DNA from: a virus
Lineage: Duplodnaviria > Heunggongvirae > Uroviricota > Caudoviricetes
Strand: one strand, 5' to 3'
DNA: 17,831 nt
IMG/VR virus record: IMGVR_UViG_2695420624_000004
How positions within the stretch are numbered: the stretch's first letter is position 1; each line of letters begins with the position of its first letter. The notes beneath the pieces were generated by a model. The model worked only from the letters and a program-made list of their open reading frames with translations, did not search any database and had not been told where the DNA came from. Made by a program: the position numbers and the translations under genes. Shown here one piece after another: positions 2,397 through 17,831 of this stretch.

Positions 2397-3518
2397 TTAG
2401 TCATCAACCGCGACTCCTGCACAATCATGGGCTATTGCCAGCAATTGTTTTTTAATTGCTTTAGCATCTACCGTCATATCTACTGTAGCAAAATGGATCT
2501 TATGTCCCTGAGTGACAACATACTCATTAAGCATATAGCCAACAGCTGGATGAAGTAGAAGACCAGCGGCATTGAGCGAAAGCGGATCCGTCTTGTTCTC
2601 CTGTGTTCTAAGGTAGGTATATAGCTGATAAATATAGCCATTACGTAGTGATTGCTCCCGATGCCAACCCTTTGTCAGAATCGAATTAAATTTGGTATCG
2701 ATAATAATACGCCGCTGGGCAGTCTTGTGTTCCAGAATAATGTCTGACTTCATTGTCGGGAAAATCTCTGCACTACCTGCACTTTGATCGCTCAACGCCC
2801 ATTTCAGCTCTTTCCCTGCAGAGACCTGCCAAGTTGTTTTGGCAAGGTGTACACGATATAAGCCAGCGATACCTTTTTCAAATAGTCTTCTCATCCAGTA
2901 AAGGTTATTTGAGGGCGCAGGTAAAAGATATTGGCCTTGATCTTCGGTCGGCATCAGCAGTTCAAAAGCTAATCGTGCGGCATCGACCATCGGTTTATCT
3001 GCGGCATCATGGCGTCCAAAACGCCACACTGAGGGTAATTCGCGGGGGGCAGGATATCCTCCATTTATCCCCTCACGGCGAAGTGATATTGCCATAAAAT
3101 GGCAATCTGCCGCCAAAGACGGTTTCACTATGATTGAGGCCAGACGTTCTAACGCACAGCGAACATAGCGATTTCGGGGGGTGTTGAGGGTTATGTCTTG
3201 AAAATGGCAGGCAACCTGTCCCCGTTCCAGCAGTTGATGACTGGCAGTATACAGTATGTCAATGCGCCCTCTCACCCGGTTCAGGGCCGCATGACAAGTT
3301 TGGTATCCCATATTTAAATTGCGACGTCGGCGCAGCGTAATCTCATGAAGGAGGATTGTCGCCACCAGGTCGGGGATTTCTGCTGGGTTATCTTCTACTG
3401 CGATCTGATTGCGCCCTAACTGGCGAAACAGATCTGAAGCGTACAGCATCAGCATCCAGATATTTCGCATGGGAATACGTGATGCTGTATGTTGCTCACT
3501 CCCGGTTATTGTCGTCAT
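2397..3518 (-). CDS. McrC-family nuclease subunit of a Type IV (modification-dependent) restriction system
   Basis: 373-aa ORF. N-terminal PMRNIWMLMLYA resembles the McrC N-terminus; the IIIDTKF...QSLRNGYIYQLYTYL block matches the McrC PD-(D/E)xK nuclease region. Start ATG overlaps the upstream stop as ATGA. Confidence 0.8.
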   Translation of the reverse strand: MTTITGSEQHTASRIPMRNIWMLMLYASDLFRQLGRNQIAVEDNPAEIPDLVATILLHEITLRRRRNLNMGYQTCHAALNRVRGRIDILYTASHQLLERGQVACHFQDITLNTPRNRYVRCALERLASIIVKPSLAADCHFMAISLRREGINGGYPAPRELPSVWRFGRHDAADKPMVDAARLAFELLMPTEDQGQYLLPAPSNNLYWMRRLFEKGIAGLYRVHLAKTTWQVSAGKELKWALSDQSAGSAEIFPTMKSDIILEHKTAQRRIIIDTKFNSILTKGWHREQSLRNGYIYQLYTYLRTQENKTDPLSLNAAGLLLHPAVGYMLNEYVVTQGHKIHFATVDMTVDAKAIKKQLLAIAHDCAGVAVDD

Positions 3519-5497
3519 TTTGCTAATAACACTTTTCTGGCTTCATCGACTTTATTTGGAGCATCGAACCAATATTCGGCGAGCAAAGGGCAGATCTCTG
3601 TATCAACGACTTGTTCATACCAAGCCTGGGCATCGTTGATTTTTTGGCCGATAGCTGGGGTGACATAGCTGTGACCGATACAAAACTGTGGTCCTAAGGT
3701 AACATCTTTTGCCAGCATATCGTTTAATACCGTCAGTCGAGATTTGATGAATGCTAACATGTCAAAATCAATTGCGTAATTATAATTTACCCAGTTTCTC
3801 CACGCGTCATTAAAAGCTGGCTTTAGATCGATAAACGCGAAACGACGGCGCAGCGCTAGGTCAAGTAGTGCGAGTGAGCGGTCTGCAATATTCATCGTAC
3901 CGATGATATATAGATTCTCAGGAATGTATATTTTTTCATCAGCATTTTTAGGATAGGAAAGAGATAATGCCTCAGTCGGCGTGCGTTTATCTGCTTCCAT
4001 CAACGTGAGTGTTTCACCGAAGATTTGCGCCGGATTGCCACGATTAATCTCTTCAATTATCACCACATATTTCGAGGTAGGATTATTGACTGCAGTTTTG
4101 ATTGCATTTACAAAAGGTCCATCAATTAGCGTCAATTGCCCTTCTTTACCTGGACGCCAGCCTCGAATAAAGTCTTCGTAAGAGAGGTTCGGGTGAAATT
4201 GCACCGCGCTAATACGCTCAGGTGCTTTTTCTCCCATCAAGCAGTACGCCAGACGTCGCGCTAACCAAGTTTTTCCAGTTCCGGGTGGTCCTTGTAATAT
4301 CAGGTTTTTCTTGTCGATCAGGCGCTGAAGTGTGAGTTGGATCTTAGCCTCTTCCAAGAAACAGCCATCCTGCACCAGATGACTGATGTCATAAGGAACG
4401 TGGGTGAGTTTTGGCAACAGCGCACTCTCTTCGACAGTTTCCTCAGTTATCGTCTGGGATTCGTTTTTCTCAAAATTCAGGTATTCATAATTTCCGGACT
4501 CGAGGGACTTTAACTCATCATCATTGCATAGTTTCTGTAGATAAAAGTAGATTGAGCTTGTAACAGTTTTGCTCTCAGGATGCTCTACCTTGAATACGTC
4601 CAAGTAGTTTTCTTCCAACTCCGAAGCAGTGAAATAAGGGCCATTTTTTTTCAGGCATAACGCCTTAATTTTATTCAGTAAAGAGGCTTTCCACGTTCTA
4701 TTTGCCACCTCATCTTTAGACTGGCTAAGATCTGTATTCCACGCTGATAAGGAAAGTTCTGGGAAAGAATGAACCGGATAGTTTGGTTGGGTAAAGACCT
4801 CGTTCAGCGCCCGCATAAGACTCAGGTAACTTTGTCCACTACAGCGACCTTTTGCCCCGTTTTTAATGATCTTAATGTTTAACACTGTCTGAATGTAATA
4901 CTGCGACTGGCTATCTAAAGTGGGGTAGAACCAAGGACGGGTCCAGTACAACCCCATGGTGAGATTCCAACCGACATTCATTACTGTAGAAGCGATGTCA
5001 TATGCGGCAGTGAAGTCTGCAGAGTTAGTATTCTGGTTATCCGCAAAGATCATTGCCTGTGAGAACATTTCCCACAAGCATTCAATGTCATTAGGGTCGC
5101 GTGACTTTTCATAACCAAAGAACCAAGATTTTTGGTTATTCAACAGAGGGATTCCGGCAAAGGAGTCAGGAATCGGTTCGTTCACGCCCAACAAATTCGC
5201 TAGCTTGGCAGCAATAATTTTGCGATTGCTGTCGGTCAAGTTACGATTGAACAAGCCCATAGTAGTAAACGGACAAATGTCTTTTAAGGGAAAGATCTCT
5301 CCCATAATAGATTTGTCCTGCAGATGGGACATTCCTTCCACACCCGAGGCAATTAGATGAATACCTTTGACTAATTCATCTCTACGATTTCGCCAAGTCA
5401 GTAACGCGTTGGCAAAAGCCTCATAAAAACTAGCCCAAGCAAACTTGCCATCATGTTCTGCTGTATCCACGGGAACTCCATTATACTTGTTGAGCAA
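3515..5497 (-). CDS. McrB-family AAA+ GTPase with an extended, uncharacterised N-terminal region of about 400 aa
   Basis: Walker A LILQGPPGTGKTW and a C-terminal IIGTMNIADRS...ALRRRFAF block typical of McrB. The annotated start is TTG; an in-frame GTG at 5470 with GGAG 5 nt upstream and a TATAAT just before it is a plausible alternative start. Confidence 0.85.
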   Translation of the reverse strand: MLNKYNGVPVDTAEHDGKFAWASFYEAFANALLTWRNRRDELVKGIHLIASGVEGMSHLQDKSIMGEIFPLKDICPFTTMGLFNRNLTDSNRKIIAAKLANLLGVNEPIPDSFAGIPLLNNQKSWFFGYEKSRDPNDIECLWEMFSQAMIFADNQNTNSADFTAAYDIASTVMNVGWNLTMGLYWTRPWFYPTLDSQSQYYIQTVLNIKIIKNGAKGRCSGQSYLSLMRALNEVFTQPNYPVHSFPELSLSAWNTDLSQSKDEVANRTWKASLLNKIKALCLKKNGPYFTASELEENYLDVFKVEHPESKTVTSSIYFYLQKLCNDDELKSLESGNYEYLNFEKNESQTITEETVEESALLPKLTHVPYDISHLVQDGCFLEEAKIQLTLQRLIDKKNLILQGPPGTGKTWLARRLAYCLMGEKAPERISAVQFHPNLSYEDFIRGWRPGKEGQLTLIDGPFVNAIKTAVNNPTSKYVVIIEEINRGNPAQIFGETLTLMEADKRTPTEALSLSYPKNADEKIYIPENLYIIGTMNIADRSLALLDLALRRRFAFIDLKPAFNDAWRNWVNYNYAIDFDMLAFIKSRLTVLNDMLAKDVTLGPQFCIGHSYVTPAIGQKINDAQAWYEQVVDTEICPLLAEYWFDAPNKVDEARKVLLAK

Positions 5498-5830: not shown

Positions 5831-6415
5831 TTATTCCATAACAGGGATTGCAGGCCACTCAATATCAGGTGCAGTTGATGTATCAACACGATTCAGCAAC
5901 ACCCGATACTTCTTCCAGGCTTCAAGCAACGAGGTTTCTTCCTCCGTTGCGATTTCCAGATCTGCAGCATCCTGAAGCGGGGCAATATGCTCACTGGCTA
6001 CCTGCATCAGGCTGTTTTTTGTTTCTTCCGCCTCCCGGATCCGGAACAGTTTTTCTGCTTCCGTATCCTTCACCCAGGCTGTGCCGTTCCACTTCTGAAA
6101 CTCCCCTTCCGGGGATAACCAGGTGATATTTTCCGGTAGAGGTCCGAGTTCAGAAATAAATAACGAGTCGCCGGAAGCCACGTCATAGACGGTTTTTCCC
6201 CGATGATCTTCAACGAGATGCCACGATGCCTCATCACTGTTGAAAACAGCCACGAAGCCTACCGGAATATCTGGCGGTGCAATATAGGTACTGTTTGCTG
6301 GCAGACCTGTATGAGGCGGAATATATGCGTCACCTTCACCAATAAATTCATTAGTTCCGGCCAGCAGATTATAAATTTTTATGGTCCGTGGTTGTTCACT
6401 CATTCTGAATGCCAT
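5831..6415 (-). CDS. tfa: Tail fibre assembly protein (lambda Tfa-like)
   Basis: 194-aa ORF ([24 protein letters not shown]...WPAIPVME), near-identical to lambda Tfa as I remember it. Start overlaps the stf stop by 1 nt (TAATG). Confidence 0.9.
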
Positions 6416-9264
6416 TATGCAAGCCTCACAATGTAGTTAAATGCGATGTTTTTGACGGTGTTTTCCGCGTTACCAGCAGCGTTAACGGTGATGGTGTGTC
6501 CATGTGAGCCAATCGCAACGGAGTGCGTATGAGCACCAATACCGACAGTATGTGCATGTGCGCCTGCGCTTGCAGCAGTGCCGGACAGCGAGTGGGTATG
6601 AGCACCATCTGATGATGTCTTCCCTGCATTACGAGTCTGGCCACTACCGCTTGTTGTGCTCATAATCCCCGCGCTTGGATTTGAAATCGCGGTATAACCA
6701 TTAGGGAAAATGCTCGTGTTCGTGCCACCAAATGCACCGGAACTCTTGTGTTGGTGCGCGCCGGCACTATTTGCGGTCCCGCTAATACTATGGGTATGCG
6801 CCCCGGTGTTATTCGTGGATTTGGTTCCGTAATCAAACGACGATGTGGTTTTCGTCCCCAAATCCGTACTGGATGCGCTGGCGCTGTGGGTGTGCGATTT
6901 AATGCCGTCCTGTTCCTGAGACAATACGGCCCGACCACTGGCAGGTTTGCCCTTAATCGTCCAGCCACGCATATCAGGGATCACGCCTGACGGATAAGCG
7001 GCTGCAAGTTTCGGGTAAGCAGATTTGTCAAAAGTCTGCCCCTGCATCAGGGCATAACCAGACGGAACGGTATCTGATGGCCACGGGATTGGTGCGCCGA
7101 CTGGGTAGCTTTCTGGTGGAAGATTTTTCGAGGTATAAACTTCTGCCCAGCCTTCCTCAAAACCATAACCGTCTCTTGAAGAACGGTAGAACAGACCACC
7201 ATTTCTGTAATGCGCCTTCATCTGCAGGGTCCGGCAACTTCCGACTCCGGTATAGAAGTTAACCAGAATATAGCTGTCGCCAGAGCGGGTGACATTGTAA
7301 GCGCCTGATTCGGCATTCCAGGGAACGCCACCATCCGCATCGGCATATGTATCCGTTGCCCTTCTGGCAAAAGCAGCCACATGCGCGGCGGTTAAAGTAA
7401 TATCTTTGGAACCATCAAATGGAACACCGGATATTTTTCTTGCAGTCTGGAGTTTTGTAGCAGTTGCAGCATTACCAGTGGTGTTCTGATTACCCGTAGT
7501 GTTTACACCTGGAAGGTTAATATTTGCAGAACCGTCGAAAACAACTCCACCGATAGATCTTGCCGTCTGCAATTTCGTGGCTGTACTTGCATTACCATTC
7601 AATGAACCAGTTAATCCACCTGTAACAGACAACGGACCTGAAACTGTTCCTCCGGTTGTTGGCAGTGCTCCAATATCTGATGGTGTAGGTTTCTGATGTG
7701 AGCTATACATCGTATAAACAACACCATAGGTAACGCTGGAAGGCTTACTCGCTGAATATGTTGGCGAGGTATAAACAGAAACTGACGCATTTGCAGTACA
7801 ATCCCAATGGATATTTACACTCGTCGCATAATTGCCAATCTCAACGTAAATATCATATGTATCGCCGGATGTGTTGATCCAGGCGAAATTCGTTAATCCG
7901 ACGGCTGTACGCTTCCACAAAGCCCCGGTAATTCCTTTGGGGTTTCCATTGCCTGCTCGTAGAACCAGTTCTGAAATGCCTGCCTGATGTGGGGAACCGA
8001 CGTTGTAACCAGCGCCACCAATCAATGCGATGTAAACGATGGAACTCGCTTGTGGCATGGTAACCGTAGCCAGTTTGAACCACCCAGCCCCGCCAGAGAA
8101 AGACATCGTTACTGAATTTAAAGTACCAATATCTTTCGGCGTTAATGTTATATCCGCAGTCAGTGCTTTTCCGTTAACTTTTCGGTTAGATGGCACCCTG
8201 CTATTCGCATTGTCATTGGCTGCTTTAACTGCTTTTGGCGTTGCGGCCAGCGATTCACTGGTGCTATCAACAGCACTGCTAAGTTTCACAACACCTTTAG
8301 TTGTAAGGCTTGCGTCTTCCATCGCAACTGCACCGGCAATCTCTTCAGCACGATCAGCAGCAGCTTCCGCACGGGTCGCAGCGGATTCAGCAGTAGTTTT
8401 GCTCTGAGATGCCGCCGTCGCACTGCCAGCTGCCTCTGTCGCCTTCGTGGATGCTGTCGTGGCGCTGCCTTTCGCTGCTGATGCCTGTCTGCTCGCCTCA
8501 TCTTTTGAAGCAGACGCAGATGATGCCGATGACGCCGCCGAACTGGCGGACGATGCAGCTGCCATTTTTGAGGATTCTGCACTGGTTTCCGAGGCTTTCG
8601 CGTTCGTTTCGGATGTCTTCGCTGCGGATGCAGACCTCGCTGCTGCGCTGGCCTGTTCAGCGGCTTCGCCAGCCTTCGTTGTGGCTGTTGAAGCAGACGA
8701 TGCGGCGCTTTCTGCCGATTTTCCGGCGGCGGTGGCACTGGCTGAGGCCTGCCCGGCACTTGTTGACGCGGCACTGGCAGACGACGCAGCCGCTGTTTTT
8801 GAGCCTGCCGCAGCCGAGGCGCTCTGTCCCGCTGCCGTTTCAGAAGACCTGGCGTTTGTCTCAGACGTCTTTGCCGCCTTCGCGGAATTGCCTGCCGCCG
8901 TTGCCGAGGAAGCGGCACTACTGGCGCTTGATGATGCGTTCGTTTCTGATGATTTCGCTGCCTCTTTTGAGGCCGCCGCATCCCGGGCTGAGGTGGCTGC
9001 TTCTGACGCCTTCGTGGTCGCGGCGGATGCAGAAGTGGCTGCTGATTGTTGTGACGCTGCCGCATTCGTTTCTGACGTTTTCGCCGCACCGGCACTGGTA
9101 GCTGCCGCGCTTTTTGAGGACTCTGCAGCAGCACTTTTTGCTGCTTCACGGGCCTTTGTCGATGCCGTTCCTGCGCTGGAAGACGCTGACTGAGCCGACG
9201 ACGCGGCCTGTCCGGCTGACGTGCTGGCGGCACGTGCTGAGCCTGCAGCATCGGTTATTACCAC
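6415..9264 (-). CDS. stf: Side tail fibre protein (lambda Stf-like), body and receptor-binding tip; N-terminal part is in another frame
   Basis: Long Ala/Ser-rich KTSETNA-type fibre repeats, a conserved GAPIPWPSD...[24 protein letters not shown] region and a His-rich HxH C-terminal tip ending [11 protein letters not shown]. Confidence 0.85.
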
Positions 9265-11168: not shown

Positions 11169-12695
11169 TCAAAAATAAACCTCACCATCAACCATATATT
11201 TGAGAGTACTTATCGCCTGCTGGGCGGATATTGTTTTCATTAAAGGATAGTGTTTAAAAACAATGCCATTCATAAAATAGATATCACAGGTTTTATTATC
11301 TGTATTGATTATGATTTTTTCGAATGTTTTATAGGCAAGTGTACGACATAGCTCTCGCCCATTTTTACTGGTTAAGTCAATAGCATGAAAATCACCAAGT
11401 GAACTCACCGCTTTACTCTTCAAAGTTTTTAATGATACAGAAGCCCTTCGTAATTCCTTATCTAATACTCTGATTTTTTCTGCTATAGCGGTAACTTCAG
11501 GCGCAACAGATAATGCAGCAATTAAATTATTAATTTTCATCTGGAGCTCAATAATTTTCAACTCTAAAGTTTCATTAGCATCTTTCTTGTTTTCAACTGG
11601 TTGGATTTTACTACAATTAAAAAGCAACTCATTAATGATATTATAATCAACCAAATCTCTCTTTATTGATGGCCTGTCACATCGATGCAGTCTTCTCATC
11701 GGACAAACATAATAGCCATGCAAACTTCCAGATACCGCATGAACAATCATGGTATTACCACAAGCCTCGCACTTCATAACTGTTCGAAGTAGATTTATCA
11801 ACATAGGATTTTTGCTACTATTGCTAATACCAAAAGGTGCCAACCGAATTTCCTGCACAGCGTAAAACAAATCATCTGATATGACTCTGGGATAATAGCC
11901 AGCGATTTCACTTATTCCTTTACCTCTTGCACGATATGAAGGTACGCATATACCTATCAGAGCTTTATTCGCTAATAATTTTTCAATTACAGAAGGTCCC
12001 CATGCACTTTCTTTTCCTGAGAAATTCTTTACAGCATGATCATTTAAATACTTGGCTATTGCATTCAATGAGCGCCTTTCCATCCTGAGTTTAAAAATTA
12101 GCTCAATAGTTTTCACCCTGTCGGGGTCTGGAACAAAAGCCGTTCTTTTGTCATCCAATGAGAGCCATCTCGGACAAGACGCCGTCATAATCGTGCCTGA
12201 CTCCAGTGCATCCTGCCGTTTTTTCTTCCATGATAATTTAACCCGACTTGACTTTATCTCGCTTTCTTCATTTGCCCTTTGTGCTATAAGTATGGCTTTT
12301 ATTAATGAATATGGCTCATTCAATGAGTCAATATTATAGACTGTATTATCGCAAAGAGTTATAACATCAATACCGTGATTCAAAATCAATTTCAGACGCT
12401 CAATCGCCTCACCGACTTTTTCTCTTGAAAGTCTGTCCAGACTTTCAACTAACAATGTAGTCCCTGGCAATATATAACCATGTTCTATAGCATCTAAAAA
12501 TTCCGAAAAAGCTCCTGATTGTGCATGCTTTCCATTGAATGCGCTTAACCCCAAATCTTCATACGTTACGGTATCAAGGTAATAATCACTATTTACCTTT
12601 AGCCATTCAGTAATAAGCCTTCTCTGGCGGTTTAATGAATCACCAGACATCTGACTTGGTGATGAAAATCGCATATATGCTATGGCTTTTTTCAT
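11169..12695 (-). CDS. ybcK: Large serine recombinase (YbcK-like)
   Basis: 508 aa. N-terminal resolvase-type catalytic domain (AIAYMRFSSPSQ with the presumed serine nucleophile), recombinase domain and a Cys-rich zinc-ribbon region (CEACG...CPMRRLHRC). Length and position next to emrE match DLP12 ybcK. Confidence 0.8.
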   Translation of the reverse strand: MKKAIAYMRFSSPSQMSGDSLNRQRRLITEWLKVNSDYYLDTVTYEDLGLSAFNGKHAQSGAFSEFLDAIEHGYILPGTTLLVESLDRLSREKVGEAIERLKLILNHGIDVITLCDNTVYNIDSLNEPYSLIKAILIAQRANEESEIKSSRVKLSWKKKRQDALESGTIMTASCPRWLSLDDKRTAFVPDPDRVKTIELIFKLRMERRSLNAIAKYLNDHAVKNFSGKESAWGPSVIEKLLANKALIGICVPSYRARGKGISEIAGYYPRVISDDLFYAVQEIRLAPFGISNSSKNPMLINLLRTVMKCEACGNTMIVHAVSGSLHGYYVCPMRRLHRCDRPSIKRDLVDYNIINELLFNCSKIQPVENKKDANETLELKIIELQMKINNLIAALSVAPEVTAIAEKIRVLDKELRRASVSLKTLKSKAVSSLGDFHAIDLTSKNGRELCRTLAYKTFEKIIINTDNKTCDIYFMNGIVFKHYPLMKTISAQQAISTLKYMVDGEVYF

Positions 12696-12880
12696 GGTGA
12701 CACCTGCTAAAGTATGCTTTTATAAACCTTAGTGGTGAGATATGATTTTTGTTTAATTTTTATTTAAAAAGACAATTAAGGTCACATTATCTTGAATATA
12801 CAACAATAATCGTATTGCAATTTTCTTACACCATAATCTTGAAAGCACAAAAGAATGAATAAAAACTAAAGACATTAACA

Positions 12881-12919
12881 AAAAGCATAAAACGAGGCCC
12901 ATATAAATATACGAGCCTC
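12881..12919 (-). terminator. Possible emrE terminator (weak hairpin plus T-rich tract)
   Basis: GAGGC/GCCTC 5-bp stem with a long AT-rich loop, followed on the minus strand by GTTTTATGCTTTTTG, about 30 nt after the emrE stop. Confidence 0.3.
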
Positions 12920-12950
12920 CATATTTTAGTCGTTTAAAAACAAATTATTT

Positions 12951-13283
12951 TTAATGTGGTGTGCTTCGTGACAATAAATTAATAACCAACACACCGGCAC
13001 AAATCAACATCATGCCTATAATGGCTGGCAGGTCCAACCGTTGGCCGAAAAATCCCCATGATAGTAAGCTAATCAGGACAATACCGACTCCTGACCAGAT
13101 AGCATAAGCAATCCCTGTAGGAATATAAGCCAGCGTCTGAGCTAATAACCAGAATGATGCACAATAACAAATAATTGTACCAACAGATGGCCATAACCGT
13201 GTAAAACCTTCTGAAAACTTCATTAAGGTTGTACCAATGACCTCTGCAAGTATTGCACCACCAAGATAAATATAAGGATTCAT
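12951..13283 (-). CDS. emrE: SMR-family multidrug efflux protein EmrE (110 aa)
   Basis: MNPYIYLGGAILAEVIGTTLMKFSEGF...LLSRSTPH is essentially the EmrE sequence. The ORF track's 128-aa version starts 18 codons upstream; the true start is the ATG at 13283. Confidence 0.9.
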   Translation of the reverse strand: MNPYIYLGGAILAEVIGTTLMKFSEGFTRLWPSVGTIICYCASFWLLAQTLAYIPTGIAYAIWSGVGIVLISLLSWGFFGQRLDLPAIIGMMLICAGVLVINLLSRSTPH

Positions 13284-13350
13284 AGCATATTCTTTCCTGT
13301 TCAAACTGGAGAGAATTGTACTACAGTTTGAACTCAACTCACCTGTTTCA

Positions 13351-13653
13351 TCATTGTGTACCCATTGATGTTCTTTTATATACCCTCAATACCCGTTTCA
13401 TCGCGGCACTCTGGCGACACTCCTTAAAAATCAAATTCGTGCTCACCTTTCCTTCCCATTCTTCTCTGGTAGCGAACCGATAATACACCGTTCGCCAGAC
13501 CTTACCATCAACGACTAGGATTCCTGCCCGCGCCATTTTAGCCGCAGCCTGATTTATGCTGGTTACCGTTGCGCCTGTTACCGCGGCAACGTCCTGCGCA
13601 CAGAATTTCTTATGAGTCCCCAGGTAATGAATAATTGACTCTTTGCCCGTCAT
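13351..13653 (-). CDS. ren: Ren-like protein
   Basis: MTGKESIIHYLGTH...AAKMARAGILVVDGKVWRTVYYRFATREE is near-identical to lambda Ren. Start overlaps the P stop (ATGA). Confidence 0.85.
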   Translation of the reverse strand: MTGKESIIHYLGTHKKFCAQDVAAVTGATVTSINQAAAKMARAGILVVDGKVWRTVYYRFATREEWEGKVSTNLIFKECRQSAAMKRVLRVYKRTSMGTQ

Positions 13654-14351
13654 ACCCTTGCTCCTTTCAGCCCAAACTTAGCTTTGATTTCTGCGATCTT
13701 CGCCAGAGCCTGTGCACGATTTAGAGGTCTACCGCCCATGACAGGAAGTTGTTTTACTGGTTCAGGTATAGCCTCACCACGGTTAATTCGTGCGGTCATA
13801 CAGGACAGTTCATCGGCAGCCTTGCGCCGTAATTCCGCGTCAGTCAACGCATTGGCCCGCATGTTCTGATACAGGTTGGTAACCAGCCAGTAGTGCGCGT
13901 TTGATTTCCACGGATAAGACTCTGCATCCGGATACAGCCCGCGCTTCCGGCAATACTCGTAAACCATATCAACCAGCTCGCTGGCGTTTGGCAGCCCGGC
14001 GGTAACGGATGCTTCTTCCCGGCACCAGGCGACAAACTGCCCGGGTGATGGCAGGAATGGTCGATTCTGCCGACGGGCTACGCGCATTCCAGCGTTAACC
14101 TGTTCCATTGTGGTGATCCCGTTTTCCCGAAAAGCCAGCACCCACTGGCGGCGGATTTCGTTCAGTTCATTCTGGTCACGGTTAGCCAGGCTCGCCGGGA
14201 AAGTTGCCAGTAACTGGCTGAACACACCGTTGATGATCTGCGCTACCTGCTGTACCTGTGGCTTTTCGTCGTACTGTTCCGGCATGTTGTTGGCGATCCG
14301 ACGCATCTGCTCACGGTCAAAGTTAACCATCTGTGCGGCGATGTTTTTCAT
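13650..14351 (-). CDS. P: Replication protein P (lambda P-like, full length, 233 aa)
   Basis: MKNIAAQMVNFDREQMRRIANNMPEQYDEKPQVQQ... near-identical to lambda P over the full length. Confidence 0.9.
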   Translation of the reverse strand: MKNIAAQMVNFDREQMRRIANNMPEQYDEKPQVQQVAQIINGVFSQLLATFPASLANRDQNELNEIRRQWVLAFRENGITTMEQVNAGMRVARRQNRPFLPSPGQFVAWCREEASVTAGLPNASELVDMVYEYCRKRGLYPDAESYPWKSNAHYWLVTNLYQNMRANALTDAELRRKAADELSCMTARINRGEAIPEPVKQLPVMGGRPLNRAQALAKIAEIKAKFGLKGARV

Positions 14352-14584
14352 AGATCCACCCCGTAAATCCAGTCAGTGTTTGTCAGGTCGAGTTTTGGTT
14401 TGCCGACTGTCACGCCAGCCTGTTGCTTGTTCCGGTTGATTTCGAGCTGGGTCCACTTGTCGCGGAGTTTGGCCGGACTCAGCACGTTACCGGACCAGAA
14501 GTTGTCCTGGCAGGCCCAGCGGAACAGTACACACATGTCGCGGTGGTTACGTCCATCACGTTCACGCATCAGACGGATATCGTT
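14348..14584 (-). pseudogene. O: Replication protein O, C-terminal ~78 codons only
   Basis: ...[59 protein letters not shown]...[13 protein letters not shown] matches the lambda O C-terminus. The first 16 codons of the ORF-track call are antisense to exo and not O. Confidence 0.8.
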
Positions 14585-15238
14585 ACCGGGATCGACGTGA
14601 GAGCTGTCGAACAGGGGGATGATGCGTGGCACAAATTACGGCTCGGCGTCATCACCGCTTCAGAAGTTCACAACGTGATAGCAAAGCCCCGCTCAGGAAA
14701 GAAGTGGCCTGACATGAAAATGTCCTACTTCCACACCCTGCTTGCCGAGGTTTGCACCGGTGTGGCTCCGGAAGTTAACGCTAAAGCACTGGCCTGGGGA
14801 AAACAGTACGAGAACGACGCCAGAACCCTGTTTGAGTTCACTTCCGGCGTAAATGTTATTGAATCCCCGATCATCTATCGCGACGAAAGTATGCGCACCG
14901 CCTGCTCTCCCGATGGTTTATGCAGTGACGGCAATGGCCTTGAACTGAAATGCCCGTTTACCTCCCGGGATTTCATGAAGTTCCGGCTCGGTGGTTTCGA
15001 GGCCATAAAGTCGGCTTACATGGCCCAGGTGCAGTACAGCATGTGGGTGACGCGAAAAGATGCCTGGTACTTTGCCAACTATGACCCGCGTATGAAGCGT
15101 GAAGGCCTGCATTATGTCGTGGTTGAGCGGGATGAAAAGTACATGGCGAATTTTGACGAGATGGTGCCGGAGTTCATCGAAAAAATGGACGAGGCACTGG
15201 CTGAAATTGGTTTTGTATTTGGGGAGCAATGGCGATGA
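14585..15238 (+). pseudogene. exo: Lambda exonuclease (Exo/Red-alpha) lacking its first ~9 codons; joined head-to-head to O'
   Basis: From [41 protein letters not shown] to the C-terminal FVFGEQWR this is near-identical to lambda Exo. The N-terminal 54 codons of the ORF-track call are antisense to O. No ATG start at the joint. Confidence 0.8.
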
Positions 15239-15393
15239 CGCATCCTCACGATAATATCCGGGTAGGCGCGATCACTTTCGTCTACTCCATTACAAAGCGA
15301 GGCTGGGTATTTCCCGGCCTTTCTGTTATCAGAAATCCACTGAAAGCACAGCGGCTGGCTGAGAAGATAAATAACAAACAGGAGGATATATGA
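15235..15393 (+). CDS. Small 52-aa ORF, lambda orf60a-like, coupled to exo
   Basis: [55 protein letters not shown] overlaps the exo stop (ATGA) and its stop overlaps the next ATG (ATATGA). Not in the ORF track because it is under 60 aa. Resemblance to lambda orf60a is from memory. Confidence 0.5.
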
Positions 15394-16454
15394 GTCAGGT
15401 TGGTAATCATTCATTCGAATTTCCGGCATCGCAAGGTGTACAGGGTGGTACTGTTACACTCTTCCTTACCATACCAGGAAGATCGCTGGCTCGTTTCCTC
15501 GCTTCAGATAATTACGGCCATACACTGGAACGCTCTCAGCGAGAAATTAATCCAAATCGAGTACGAAAATTTTTAAATTATCTCACTAACGCAGACTCAA
15601 GAAATGAGCCTTTTATCATTCCCCCTCTCGTAGGTAACTGTGATTCGAATATAGAATTTGTACCGTTTGGCAACACAAATGTTGGTATAGCCAGAATTCC
15701 CCTCGACGCCGAAATAAAACTTTTTGATGGTCAACATCGTGCAGCTGGCATTGAGATATTTTGCCGAAGTTCCCCATCAACGCTCATGGTTCCCATGATG
15801 CTTACAATGAATCTGCCGCTAAAAACCCGGCAGCAGTTCTTTTCGGACATAAATAACAACGTTTCTAAGCCATCAGCGACCATCAATATGGCGTATAACG
15901 GCCGGGATGATATTGCTCAGGGAATGATATCCTTCCTGACCCAACATACTGTATTTGCCGATATAACCGATTTTGAACACAACGTAGTGCCATTAAAAAG
16001 TAATATGTGGGTGAGTTTCAAGGCACTCACTGATGCAACGTCAAAGTTCGCTAGGAACGGCAATCAACAACTTGAAATGGGATATATAGAATCTGTCTGG
16101 GAGGCATGGATTACACTAACTCAGATTGACTCAATCCGACATGGTGTACACCACGCTACGTACAAGCGCGATTATATTCAGTTCCATGGAGTAATGATTA
16201 ACGCTTTCGGTTTTGCGGTTCAACAGATGATGGTTAATCATTCCATCGCAGAAATAACTTCTATGATCGAAAAACTATGTGCAACTACCAGCTCTGCAGA
16301 AAGAGAGGATTTTTTTCTGATGGATAACTGGGCGGGGATCTGCACGAAAGCCAGCCAGGAAAAACTATCTGTTATTGCCAATGTGGCAGCGCAGAAAGCA
16401 GCAGCAAACAGACTGATACAAGCTTTTACCAAAGGAAGTCTGGAAACAACTTAA
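15390..16454 (+). CDS. DGQHR-domain (DndB-like, ParB/Srx-type) protein, 354 aa
   Basis: Literal motif FDGQHRAAGIE at about residues 113-123, in the position expected for DndB/DGQHR proteins. Translationally coupled to the upstream small ORF and followed by a terminator. Confidence 0.7.
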   Translation: MSQVGNHSFEFPASQGVQGGTVTLFLTIPGRSLARFLASDNYGHTLERSQREINPNRVRKFLNYLTNADSRNEPFIIPPLVGNCDSNIEFVPFGNTNVGIARIPLDAEIKLFDGQHRAAGIEIFCRSSPSTLMVPMMLTMNLPLKTRQQFFSDINNNVSKPSATINMAYNGRDDIAQGMISFLTQHTVFADITDFEHNVVPLKSNMWVSFKALTDATSKFARNGNQQLEMGYIESVWEAWITLTQIDSIRHGVHHATYKRDYIQFHGVMINAFGFAVQQMMVNHSIAEITSMIEKLCATTSSAEREDFFLMDNWAGICTKASQEKLSVIANVAAQKAAANRLIQAFTKGSLETT

Positions 16455-16521
16455 TGAATCAACATTGTCTCATATCAGCATGCTGTACGGCGTCTTTAAG
16501 GAACGGTGAGCATGAAAAACA

Positions 16522-16542
16522 AAATCATCATGGAGCTACAGG
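16522..16542 (+). terminator. Rho-independent terminator downstream of the DGQHR gene
   Basis: GGAGC-TACAG-GCTCC hairpin immediately followed by TTTTTTATT. Confidence 0.5.
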
Positions 16543-16607
16543 CTCCTTTTTTATTATTCGCATTCACCCTCAAGCGTATTAACCAACAATTCAGGGATTA
16601 ATGAAAG

Positions 16608-16826
16608 ATGGCAGACATCATTGATTCAGCATCAGAAATTGAAGAATTACAGCGCAACACAGCAATAAAAATGCGCCGCCTGAACCACCAGGCTATATCT
16701 GCCACTCATTGTTGTGAGTGTGGCGATCCGATAGATGAACGAAGACGCCTGGCCGTTCAGGGTTGTCGGACTTGTGCAAGTTGCCAGGAGGAGATCGAAC
16801 TTAAGAACAAACAATGGGGACTGTGA
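16608..16826 (+). CDS. TraR/DksA-family C4 zinc-finger protein (lambda Orf73-like)
   Basis: 72 aa with a CxxC...CxxC arrangement (HCCECGDP...GCRTCASC) typical of TraR/DksA C4 fingers, in the exo-xis accessory region where lambda encodes its TraR-like protein. Confidence 0.7.
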   Translation: MADIIDSASEIEELQRNTAIKMRRLNHQAISATHCCECGDPIDERRRLAVQGCRTCASCQEEIELKNKQWGL

Positions 16827-16873: not shown

Positions 16874-17113
16874 ATGTTCAGAATCATTTTTCCTAACACC
16901 TGGTACGTCGACCACCACGGCACTCCCTGCAAAATCCTGCGTTCTACCCACAACAAAGTTCACTACATCCGAAAAGGCAGAACATGTATCGCCAGCATGT
17001 TCCGCTTTAATCATGACTTTGAACCTGTGAATAAAGCTGATGCAGATCGGATAGCAGAAGAGATCGAAACGGCAGAACACATTAAGAAGTTACGTGCCAT
17101 ACGCAGGAAATAG
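16874..17113 (+). CDS. Hypothetical 79-aa protein (exo-xis accessory region)
   Basis: ATG preceded by GAGGTG at good spacing. Basic C-terminus. Co-directional with the TraR-like gene. No family recognised. Confidence 0.5.
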   Translation: MFRIIFPNTWYVDHHGTPCKILRSTHNKVHYIRKGRTCIASMFRFNHDFEPVNKADADRIAEEIETAEHIKKLRAIRRK

Positions 17114-17162: not shown

Positions 17163-17831
17163 ATGTGAACCGCCCCGGGTTTCCTGGAGAGTGTTTTATC
17201 TGTGAACTCAGGCTGCCAGATCATCGTTTCCGATGGAAGCATAATAAGCTTTTTCTGCTTCTGCCGGAGGAGTATGGCCCAGCCTTTCCAGCAATCGTCG
17301 ATTGTTATACCAGTCCACCCACGTGAGTGTGGCCAGTTCCACTTCTGCACGGTTTTTCCAGCTCTTACGGTGTATTACCTCCGCTTTGTAAAGACCATTG
17401 ATGCTCTCCGCCATCGCGTTGTCATACGAGTCGCCTGTACTTCCTGTTGATGCCAGTAATCCGGCTTCCTTAAGCCGCTGTGTGTAGGCCAGCGATACAT
17501 ACTGAGAACCTTTATCACTGTGATGGACCGTGCCGGACGGTCGACGGGCCCATAACGCCTGCTCCAGTGCATCCAGCACGAATGTCGTTTCCATGGACGA
17601 TGAGACCCGCCACCCCACGATGTATCCGGCAAACACATCAATGATGAACGCCACATAGACGAAGCCCCGCCATGTGCTGACGTAAGTAAAATCAGCCACC
17701 CACAGCTGGTCAGGTCGTTCTGCCACGAACTGACGGTTTACGCGGTCGCCTGCGGCAACGGCTTTCCGGCTGATGGTCGTACGGACCTTTTTACCCCGGA
17801 GAACACCGGCAAGTCCCATAACCGCCATGAG
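17163..17831 (-). mobile_element. IS3-family insertion sequence (IS629/IS3411-like end), truncated by the window edge
   Basis: Terminal inverted repeat beginning TGAACCGCCCCGGGTTTCCTGGAGAG at 17163, about 45 bp from the transposase stop. Only the orfB-proximal end is present. Confidence 0.75.
17208..17828 (-). CDS. IS3-family transposase OrfB (DDE integrase core), partial; N-terminus outside the window
   Basis: 206 aa of open frame running to the window edge. Contains IS3-family DDE-core-like blocks (HSDKGSQY, DNAMAES). Confidence 0.8.
   Translation of the reverse strand: MAVMGLAGVLRGKKVRTTISRKAVAAGDRVNRQFVAERPDQLWVADFTYVSTWRGFVYVAFIIDVFAGYIVGWRVSSSMETTFVLDALEQALWARRPSGTVHHSDKGSQYVSLAYTQRLKEAGLLASTGSTGDSYDNAMAESINGLYKAEVIHRKSWKNRAEVELATLTWVDWYNNRRLLERLGHTPPAEAEKAYYASIGNDDLAA

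Follow-up and report, generated by a model that had tools for sequence, protein, structure and literature searches.

The stretch of DNA analysed here (the window, 17,831 nucleotides) is a defective lambdoid prophage remnant at icd in E. coli, and it carries a gene whose 354-aa product belongs, judging from its profile matches, to the DGQHR-domain (TIGR03187)/Pfam DndB family. The length of this product and its literal DGQHR motif (FDGQHR, residues 112-117) had already been reported by a first-pass annotation and are confirmed here, as is the claim that the window holds no dnd partner genes: none appears in the RefSeq annotation of the NCTC9100 locus, which is 99.9% identical to the window and served as the comparison locus. 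In temperate enterobacterial phages the gene would represent an exchangeable accessory cassette of the leftward early operon (pL), with a product that acts outside any phosphorothioate system. Tentatively, and with somewhat less than even confidence, we read this product as a stand-alone ParB/Srx-fold NTPase of the DndB/DGQHR branch that aids the establishment of its element, most probably by counter-defence.

A partner-less relative of DndB

The family assignment draws on several profile collections. The Pfam DndB model (PF14072) matches residues 11-286 with 158.2 bits (E 3.8e-46; cutoff 29.1), the DGQHR-domain model TIGR03187 reaches 188.8 bits (cutoff 58.85), the PADLOC DndB model 126 bits, and phrog_7901, a family of unknown function, matches over the full length with 716.8 bits. 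Agreement among four independent profile libraries rules out a chance occurrence of the DGQHR motif. The profile search proposed in the first-pass annotation bears out the DGQHR/DndB affiliation. Of the ParBc/HTH_ParB domains, neither PF02195 nor PF17762 matches at E<=1. A canonical ParB is ruled out by this result and by the lack of a parA gene in the window.

Three motifs are conserved, RSQRE (48-52), DGQHR (113-117) and FFSDINNN (150-157), and residues R48, Q50, R51, D113-R117, Q148, Q149, F151, D153 and N155 are invariant from the phage proteins through the plasmid-borne relatives to a genuine, operon-encoded DndB. The invariance of these core motifs argues for a retained nucleotide-dependent activity, and the protein may bind and hydrolyse NTP (ATP, GTP or CTP), judging solely from motif conservation; in vitro binding of ATP and GTP is on record for a DndB-like protein (bioRxiv 10.1101/2025.10.10.680097). 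The structure model places the N-terminal domain in the ParB/Srx-like fold, with low confidence at residues 40-49 and 154-167, the regions of the RSQRE and INNN motifs. Pfam detected no nuclease domain in the protein, and the helical C-terminal domain gave no informative structural match. Among PDB sequences, phmmer and profile searches found no solved relative; Foldseek against the PDB returned nothing at E<=0.001, and the structure search of BFVD yielded weak DndB/GmrSD-like viral matches only.

Among the closest known systems is DndB itself (DptB; TIGR03233; PF14072), which regulates the phosphorothioation operon dndBCDE and binds DNA in doing so (PMC4507180). Both proteins share the Pfam family, the DGQHR motif, an upstream QR motif and an F..D.N motif, and both combine a predicted ParB/Srx-fold N-terminal domain with a helical domain within about 355 aa. 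DndB lacks, however, the clade-specific motif D[FY]EHNVVP.KS..SFKAL.DAT, and it sits with dnd genes, whereas the DGQHR gene is phage-borne in the pL operon with no dndC, dndD, dndE or dndA nearby. At 106.9 bits, the match to the DndB equivalog model TIGR03233 stays well below the required 328, and the protein shows 21-25% identity with a DndB from a real dnd operon; the sub-cutoff score and the gene context rule out DndB proper. Neither the window nor the related loci of phages and plasmids contained dndC, dndD or dndE (with or without dndA/iscS), and none of about 100 related loci carries dnd, dpd or ssp partner genes. The protein of the sole dndBCDEA locus that was found (L107) is only 25% identical.

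The protein might still work in the manner of DndB, as a nucleotide-modulated transcriptional repressor that acts on phage or host operators, possibly a host dnd promoter (in keeping with the mimicry suggested at first reading), and tunes expression during lytic growth. We consider this unlikely, given the low equivalog score and identity. Neither repeats nor operator-like elements were found around the gene. The operator TACGN10CGTA, at which DndB represses dnd transcription in an ATP-modulated way, has no match in the window, a result of little weight as only 0.14 matches are expected by chance. A phage whose DNA is unmodified would gain no protection from DndFGH if dnd were repressed, and the hosts of the family (E. 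coli, Salmonella, Klebsiella and plasmids) range far wider than the reported occurrence of dnd, with dndBCDE present in 1.82% of bacterial genomes (PMC8569181).

Other characterised relatives were compared in the same way. [quoted passage not shown] In the NCBIfam collection, only three models match the DGQHR protein at E<=1, all of them DGQHR/DndB models, and neighbouring dpdA (TGT-like) and dpdC genes are absent from the window and from the annotated homologous loci; profile scores and gene context thus rule out DpdB. A type IV nuclease of the GmrSD/SspE/DndI kind is ruled out because the DndB family is the only Pfam match and the helical C-terminal domain has no nuclease match; unlike the DUF262/GmrSD-type nucleases SspE, DndI and BrxU, the protein has neither a C-terminal DUF1524/HNH domain nor a Pfam DUF262 match. 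By its description as a protein with a kinase and a shutoff domain, the known phage anti-Dnd factor JSS1_004 differs in domain make-up. Full-text literature searches found no functional study of an orphan DGQHR protein from a phage or plasmid.

The cassette in its truncated operon

The features of the region are listed in Table 1. On the exo side, homology to lambda starts at 14584, and window positions 14584-15392 are 97% identical to lambda 32002-31194 (blastn). From the orf63 start codon onwards a cassette of 1081 bp stands in place of lambda 31193-30748 (446 bp), the segment with orf63 and orf61. The replaced lambda genes and the DGQHR gene occupy the same slot, with exo-orf60a upstream and a terminator and a TraR-like gene downstream in both, but the sequences are unrelated, and the cassette is the longer of the two and lower in GC (0.427 against 0.515 in the flanking exo-orf60a DNA).

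Table 1. Features in and around the DGQHR cassette (positions in the window)
Feature	Position	Strand	Basis or description
3' remnant of lambda O replication gene	14348..14584	-	RefSeq annotation of NCTC9100 locus
exo' (lambda exonuclease)	14579..15238	+	Pfam YqaJ 102 bits; RefSeq 219-aa CDS
orf60a homologue (DUF1317)	15235..15393	+	Pfam DUF1317 106.9 bits; phrog_1998 109.7 bits
Shine-Dalgarno AGGAGG	15380..15385	+	sequence reading; 4 nt before DGQHR-gene ATG
DGQHR-domain (DndB-family) gene	15390..16454	+	354 aa; predicted N-terminal ParB/Srx-fold domain and helical C-terminal domain
Non-lambda cassette	15393..16473	+	blastn against lambda, GC calculation, lambda annotation
Intrinsic-terminator-like hairpin and T-run	16532..16552	+	terminator scan; GGAGCTACAGGCTCC then TTTTTT
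TraR/DksA-type zinc-finger gene	16608..16826	+	Pfam zf-dskA_traR 35 bits; TIGR02419 54 bits; phrog_54 90.6 bits
DUF4222 gene	16874..17113	+	Pfam DUF4222 69.8 bits

Within this operon the end of exo' overlaps the orf60a ORF (which may be read from 15229 or 15235), and the ATG of the DGQHR gene overlaps the orf60a/DUF1317 stop in the tetranucleotide ATGA at 15390-15393. The gene is therefore predicted to be translationally coupled, with a strong Shine-Dalgarno sequence, and the coupling to exo'-orf60a asserted at first reading holds. The feature span of 15235-16560 proposed at that stage has to be corrected at its start, which is the orf60a start and not that of the DGQHR gene. The assertion that the gene ends at its own terminator is rejected because the hairpin falls within backbone DNA that blastn aligns to lambda 30747-30418 at 95.8% identity; it is a conserved lambda feature downstream of orf61 and the replaced segment, outside the inserted gene. 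Overall, the earlier interpretation is partly supported. The TraR/DksA-type gene is next in the operon, with lambda homology up to 16803, and the DUF4222 gene is the last, after which an IS element parts the operon from xis and int; downstream of the DUF4222 gene in NCTC9100 lie the excisionase and integrase genes and icd.

The upstream part of the operon has been lost. The deletion junction falls at the O remnant, labelled by RefSeq in NCTC9100 as 'replication protein, incomplete, missing N-terminus', and has removed pL, N, cI, cro, cII, gam, bet and the 5' part of O; exo' is left without approximately its first nine codons and all upstream operon DNA. Since the pL promoter is deleted, the copy in the window is probably weakly expressed or silent, and a sequence scan of the + strand from 14300 to 15390 found no sigma-70-like promoter. 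The loss of pL, N and all upstream early genes at 14584, the lack of a promoter-like site and the IS element that severs the operon from xis and int would all suit a silent passenger of a decaying prophage, without current function for the cell. Even for this local copy, to which alone it applies, we regard that account as very unlikely: the reading frame is undamaged, with 99-100% identity among hundreds of genomes, and the family is strongly conserved, with about 100 invariant alignment columns among sequences that are 52-73% identical.

Distribution in phages and on plasmids

Of 5426 complete E. coli genomes, 282 contain the cassette, and cryptic prophages at both icd and the DLP12 site of E. 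coli retain an undamaged gene. The relatives as a whole amount to 831 representatives. In temperate phages of Salmonella and Klebsiella, homologues with 61-74% identity are found in this early-left slot, as in the Salmonella Uetakevirus SPN1S and in Klebsiella phages. The survey of lambdoid prophages called for by the first-pass annotation likewise located the gene in this slot in intact prophages, with the gene orders bet-exo-orf60a-DGQHR and cI-rexAB-kil-gam...DGQHR. The commonest upstream neighbour is orf60a/DUF1317, which overlaps the gene by 4 nt in 35 of the 80 related loci; as a dedicated partner it is ruled out, given that lambda has orf60a without a DGQHR gene and that many homologues occur without orf60a. 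The remaining neighbours vary (TraR, multi-HTH proteins, methyltransferases, DUF550, Ead/Ea22-like), so that no constant companion gene points to a mechanism.

One of these neighbours invites a specific alternative. In seven of about 50 diverse phage loci, including SPN1S, an MT-A70 or Dam methyltransferase gene comes next and overlaps the DGQHR stop by 4 nt. Combined with the requirement of DpdA-dependent modification for DpdB and the enrichment of ParB-fold/methyltransferase fusions in prophages (bioRxiv 10.1101/2025.10.10.680097), this is compatible with a DpdB-like helper ATPase that loads on or remodels DNA so that an orphan methyltransferase of the phage or plasmid modifies the element rapidly and protects it from restriction. 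Such a role is clearly improbable in view of the majority of loci, the window included, that have no adjacent methyltransferase, and of the lambda-type copies, which are followed by the TraR/DksA gene instead.

A sister group with 37-43% identity is found on 1071 plasmids, 885 of which are predicted to be conjugative; its proteins are 70-100 aa longer and carry a C-terminal extension, and its gene neighbours include ssb, antirestriction, RadC and PsiA genes. On an IncL/M plasmid some 16 ORFs separate the DGQHR gene from the oriT/relaxase end, and ssb, Hha, DUF4942, RadC and an antirestriction gene share its orientation; the copy of the pOXA-48 type is interrupted by IS1. In Buttiauxella-type islands the DGQHR gene stands immediately ahead of PsiA, and an Antirestrict-domain gene follows. 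On IncL/M plasmids, other plasmids and islands alike, the sister-group genes stand among establishment and anti-defence genes of the leading region (ssb, psiA/psiB, ardA/klcA, orphan methyltransferases) and in the same orientation. What the pL operon of phages shares with the leading region of plasmids is that each is the 'first expressed after entry' compartment of its element; the plasmid proteins are, however, only about 40% identical to the phage protein, and their anti-defence role is putative. In the supplementary tables of PMC11541004, DGQHR figures only as a small, unnamed gene family. The occurrence of relatives in phage early operons and in the first-transferred region of plasmids makes the protein a candidate helper for incoming mobile DNA.

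Possible roles of the DGQHR protein

The pL-operon position and the leading-region context of the sister group are suggestive, and only suggestive, of early expression and an anti-defence role. Association with anti-defence islands is in itself weak evidence for what the protein does. Defence systems, moreover, contain ParB/DUF262 domains no less often than counter-defence does.

The opposite function is that of a prophage or plasmid defence (superinfection exclusion) factor, a ParB/DUF262-like sensor that has lost, or does without, a fused nuclease and protects the lysogen against other phages. The low-GC, moron-like character of the cassette and its location in an accessory hotspot would agree with such a factor, as would the intact gene in cryptic prophages at both E. 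coli sites, a McrBC-like system in the same prophage remnant, and the CBASS operon that adjoins the homologue on a Vibrio plasmid; related DUF262/ParB-fold domains also drive the type IV enzymes SspE, DndI and BrxU. Against it, the gene lacks a promoter of its own and is translationally coupled within pL, an operon that lysogens keep repressed. The protein also lacks an effector domain, PADLOC matched it with no model besides DndB, and on plasmids the relatives point the same way as the early-expressed genes of the leading region. On balance a defence function seems distinctly unlikely.

Under the establishment reading that we prefer, the protein would be made as a delayed-early product upon phage infection or induction, would bind DNA in a nucleotide-gated manner, as do DndB, DpdB and ParB, and would aid the establishment of the incoming or replicating element. 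The most probable route would be counter-defence, whereby the DNA of the element may be shielded or marked, or modification-reading host nucleases hindered. A broader proposal, which we regard as unlikely, is that the phage proteins and their plasmid sister group, with over 1000 conjugative plasmids (IncL/M among them), form an unrecognised class of broad establishment or counter-defence factors. These would be nucleotide-gated, ParB-like DNA clamps that are made first after entry and that shield the incoming DNA, recruit modification to it or serve as decoys for host nucleases whose related DUF262/ParB domain reads DNA modifications.

To our knowledge, DndB-family proteins are known only as regulators of phosphorothioation clusters and, in the case of DpdB, as the helper of a DNA-modifying enzyme. 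The DGQHR gene represents a conserved, partner-less branch of this family. Two kinds of mobile element carry this branch, each in its 'first expressed' compartment: temperate phages that infect E. coli, Salmonella and Klebsiella have it in their early operons, and conjugative plasmids of clinical importance in their leading regions. If its product is an establishment or counter-defence factor, this would add a new mechanism to the arsenal of phages and plasmids, and would give a function to one exchangeable cassette of the poorly understood exo-xis region of lambda.

A stand-alone relative of DndB

The first-pass annotation had described a 354-aa protein with a literal DGQHR motif, coupled to exo'-orf60a, and the ORF (Table), the profile scores and the gene overlaps agree: the start codon and the DUF1317/orf60a stop share ATGA, orf60a in turn overlaps exo', and AGGAGG lies 4 nt 5' of the start. 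The start proposed there, 15235, is that of orf60a; the DGQHR gene itself runs from 15390. In profile searches residues 11-286 match the Pfam DndB family (PF14072, 158.2 bits), TIGR03187, the model for the DGQHR domain, yields 188.8 bits (cutoff 58.85), the PADLOC DndB model 126 bits, and phrog_7901, a phage family of unknown function, matches over the full length (716.8 bits). Membership is thereby established and a chance motif ruled out, but the family assignment is not new, since RefSeq already names the product 'DGQHR domain-containing protein'. This branch of the superfamily is small as a whole: among 1.84 billion representative proteins a profile search recovered only 831 relatives at E<=0.001, of which 79 reach E<=1e-30. 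In a sizeable group of 510-545-aa relatives (e.g. representatives P0193, P0197, P0199 and P0201) the match to the profile begins at about residue 150, behind an N-terminal extension of about 150 aa.

An alignment of family sequences (52-73% identical) has about 100 invariant columns. R48, Q50, R51, D113-R117, Q148, Q149, F151, D153 and N155 are invariant out to plasmid homologues and one genuine operon-encoded DndB, which argues, as far as sequence can tell, that the nucleotide-dependent chemistry of the superfamily has been kept. The Pfam search revealed neither a nuclease nor any other effector domain. The protein belongs to the DndB family, lacks partner genes, has the ParB/Srx fold and carries conserved nucleotide-site motifs. 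DndB binds operators (PMC4507180), DpdB is a DNA-stimulated ATPase needed by DpdA for DNA modification (PMC10164549), and a DndB-like protein binds ATP and GTP (bioRxiv 10.1101/2025.10.10.680097); because of these precedents we infer that the DGQHR protein would bind and hydrolyse a nucleotide and bind DNA.

A DndB-like repressor, the earlier idea of a mimic of host DndB included, is an unlikely reading of such a protein; a true DndB was rejected on the equivalog model (106.9 bits versus a cutoff of 328) and the lack of adjoining dnd genes. About 100 loci with relatives (80 viral contigs, 22 genomes, annotated phages and plasmids) were inspected for partners, and none had dnd, dpd or ssp genes adjoining the DGQHR gene, bearing out the claim that it stands alone. 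The only true dndB-C-D-E-A cluster recovered, verified by Pfam, is from Halobacteriovorax (locus L107), and its protein is just 25% (tblastn) or 21% (alignment) identical to the DGQHR protein. The motif D[FY]EHNVVP.KS..SFKAL.DAT is common to the mobile-element proteins, whereas that operon-encoded DndB lacks it.

A foreign cassette in a defective prophage

NCTC9100 is one of the E. coli chromosomes to which the window is 99.9% identical, and there the corresponding stretch is a defective lambdoid prophage integrated at icd. From a deletion junction its two arms run in opposite directions; the element has lost pL, N, the immunity region, gam and bet there, and exo lacks its first nine codons. 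An IS3-family transposase inserted after DUF4222 cuts off xis and int in the window; NCTC9100 and FORC 064 run on into xis, int and icd at the insertion point, 17165, where their homology with the window ends. No sigma-70-like promoter is predicted upstream on the DGQHR strand and pL is deleted, so this copy is probably poorly expressed. That it is a silent passenger, a reading confined to the window copy, is the least probable of the alternatives.

Relative to lambda, 446 bp with orf63 and orf61 have been replaced by the 1081-bp cassette, whose left junction is exactly the orf63 start codon. Its GC content is 0.427 (GC3 0.39); the exo-orf60a DNA alongside has 0.515 (exo GC3 0.61). Because of this exchange and the lower GC, the cassette is, by its sequence, a typical gene-for-gene mosaic replacement of foreign origin. 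The terminator ascribed to the gene as its 'own' lies inside the lambda-homologous part and is therefore a backbone feature.

The McrBC-like pair at the far end of the remnant, adjoining the icd' fragment, is a type IV (modified-DNA) restriction module aboard a cryptic prophage. The order O'-P-ren-emrE-ybcK beside exo' is the arrangement known from the K-12 DLP12 prophage, here at the icd (e14) attachment site, which suggests that cryptic prophages recombined with one another.

Features of the remnant and of its NCTC9100 counterpart
Feature	Coordinates	Strand	Remarks
McrBC-like pair	2397-5497	-	McrC, 373 aa (PF10117, 75 bits); AAA_5 ATPase, 660 aa
Tail-fibre-like ORF	6415-9264	-	949 aa
Unusually GC-rich stretch of that ORF	8039-9264		GC 0.56-0.62; NCTC9100 counterpart: + strand hypothetical protein in RefSeq
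Long opposite-strand ORFs in the stretch	8409-9101; 8447-9193	+
O'-P-ren-emrE-ybcK beside exo'	11169-14632		ybcK: large serine recombinase (Resolvase + Recombinase domains)
Deletion junction	14584
Lambda homology, left	14584-15392		97% to lambda 32002-31194
Second terminator-like hairpin	15299-15321	+	in orf60a, lambda-homologous DNA; 9 bp, 6 GC pairs, weak T tail
DGQHR gene	15390-16454	+	354 aa; FDGQHR = residues 112-117
Cassette	15393-16473		1081 bp
Lambda homology, right	16474-16803		95.8% to lambda 30747-30418
Clean hairpin + T-run	16532-16552	+	terminator scan
IS3-family element	about 17165-17831
IS3-family transposase ORF	17208-17828	-	rve domain, 98 bits
NCTC9100 arm		one strand	icd' fragment, McrBC-like pair, tail-fibre genes, ybcK, emrE, ren, P, O'
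NCTC9100 arm		other strand	exo', DUF1317, DGQHR gene, TraR/DksA, DUF4222, xis, int, icd

Distribution in phages and conjugative elements

The flanks were matched in 3606 of 5426 complete E. coli genomes and the cassette in 282. Apart from the icd remnant, the cassette is found downstream of bet-exo-orf60a in lambdoid prophages that look intact, and at the DLP12 position in a prophage where cI, rexAB, kil and gam precede it. The equivalent early-left position, flanked by recombination genes and int, holds genes for proteins of 61-74% identity in Salmonella phages SPN1S, SPN9TCW and SPC32H/N (Uetakevirus), in phages of Klebsiella and in numerous IMG/VR prophages. Neighbours differ from locus to locus: upstream most commonly DUF1317 (35/80 loci, 4-nt overlap), otherwise PerC-like, HTH or ParB-HTH proteins; on the downstream side the E. 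coli type has TraR/DksA, and 22 loci have a 154-179-aa multi-HTH protein. The gene is an exchangeable cassette inside a temperate-phage early operon. A copy 100% identical to the E. coli gene in a 'Bacillota bacterium' metagenome-assembled genome (L086; contig JAEWTL010000063.1, 5.5 kb) is most likely a binning contaminant.

With no promoter of its own and a position within the repressed pL operon, the gene seems poorly placed for a defence or exclusion factor protecting the lysogen, a role we hold to be improbable. In 7 of about 50 diverse loci the downstream gene is a DNA methyltransferase, MT-A70 (84 bits) or Dam (202 bits), with a 4-nt overlap at the DGQHR stop codon. A DpdB-like helper of a methyltransferase is equally improbable; DpdB itself was rejected, as no dpd genes adjoin the DGQHR gene among the ~100 loci.

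The closest non-phage relatives sit in the early-entering region of conjugative elements. This sister group (37-43% identity, 70-100 aa longer) occurs in 1071 plasmid records, 885 of them predicted conjugative. In an IncL/M plasmid about 16 ORFs separate the homologue from the oriT/relaxase end, and it shares its orientation with ssb, an antirestriction gene, Hha, DUF1380, DUF4942 and a RadC-like JAB protein. Related 72-88 kb IncL/M plasmids keep it intact, whereas in pOXA-48-sized plasmids of ~63.5 kb (H113-H128; Klebsiella, E. coli, Enterobacter) IS1 splits it in two, a natural knockout. Chromosomal islands of Buttiauxella, Dryocola and Pseudescherichia (L098-L103) carry a leading-region-like module in which a DGQHR protein of 438-460 aa is encoded right before PsiA (142.6 bits), with DUF5431, an Antirestrict-domain protein and DUF932 coming next (e.g. 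L098, 7992-11478). On a Vibrio mediterranei plasmid (L110, 7001-13836) an orphan 458-aa protein annotated 'DndB' (33% identical) has a CBASS-like operon (nucleotidyltransferase, ThiF, MPN, SAVED) and radC close behind it on the downstream side. The supplementary tables of PMC11541004 list a small 'DGQHR domain-containing' family with no comment.

A role in establishment or counter-defence, acting on DNA early after entry, is our tentative preference. Such a role would agree with both genomic compartments and with the repeated linkage to orphan methyltransferases.

Implications

The initial observation is confirmed and its interpretation partly supported. Our literature search turned up no work on the function of an orphan DGQHR protein from a phage or plasmid; the exo-xis literature concerns orf60a, orf61, orf63, orf73 and ea22. 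JSS1_004, the phage anti-Dnd factor already known, differs in domain make-up, being described as a protein with kinase and shutoff domains. What is new here is a stand-alone, mobile-element-borne form of the DndB/DGQHR ParB-like NTPases. The IS1-disrupted copies of pOXA-48-sized plasmids could be exploited for experiments, and the most useful new lead is the tie to plasmid leading regions and overlapping methyltransferase genes.
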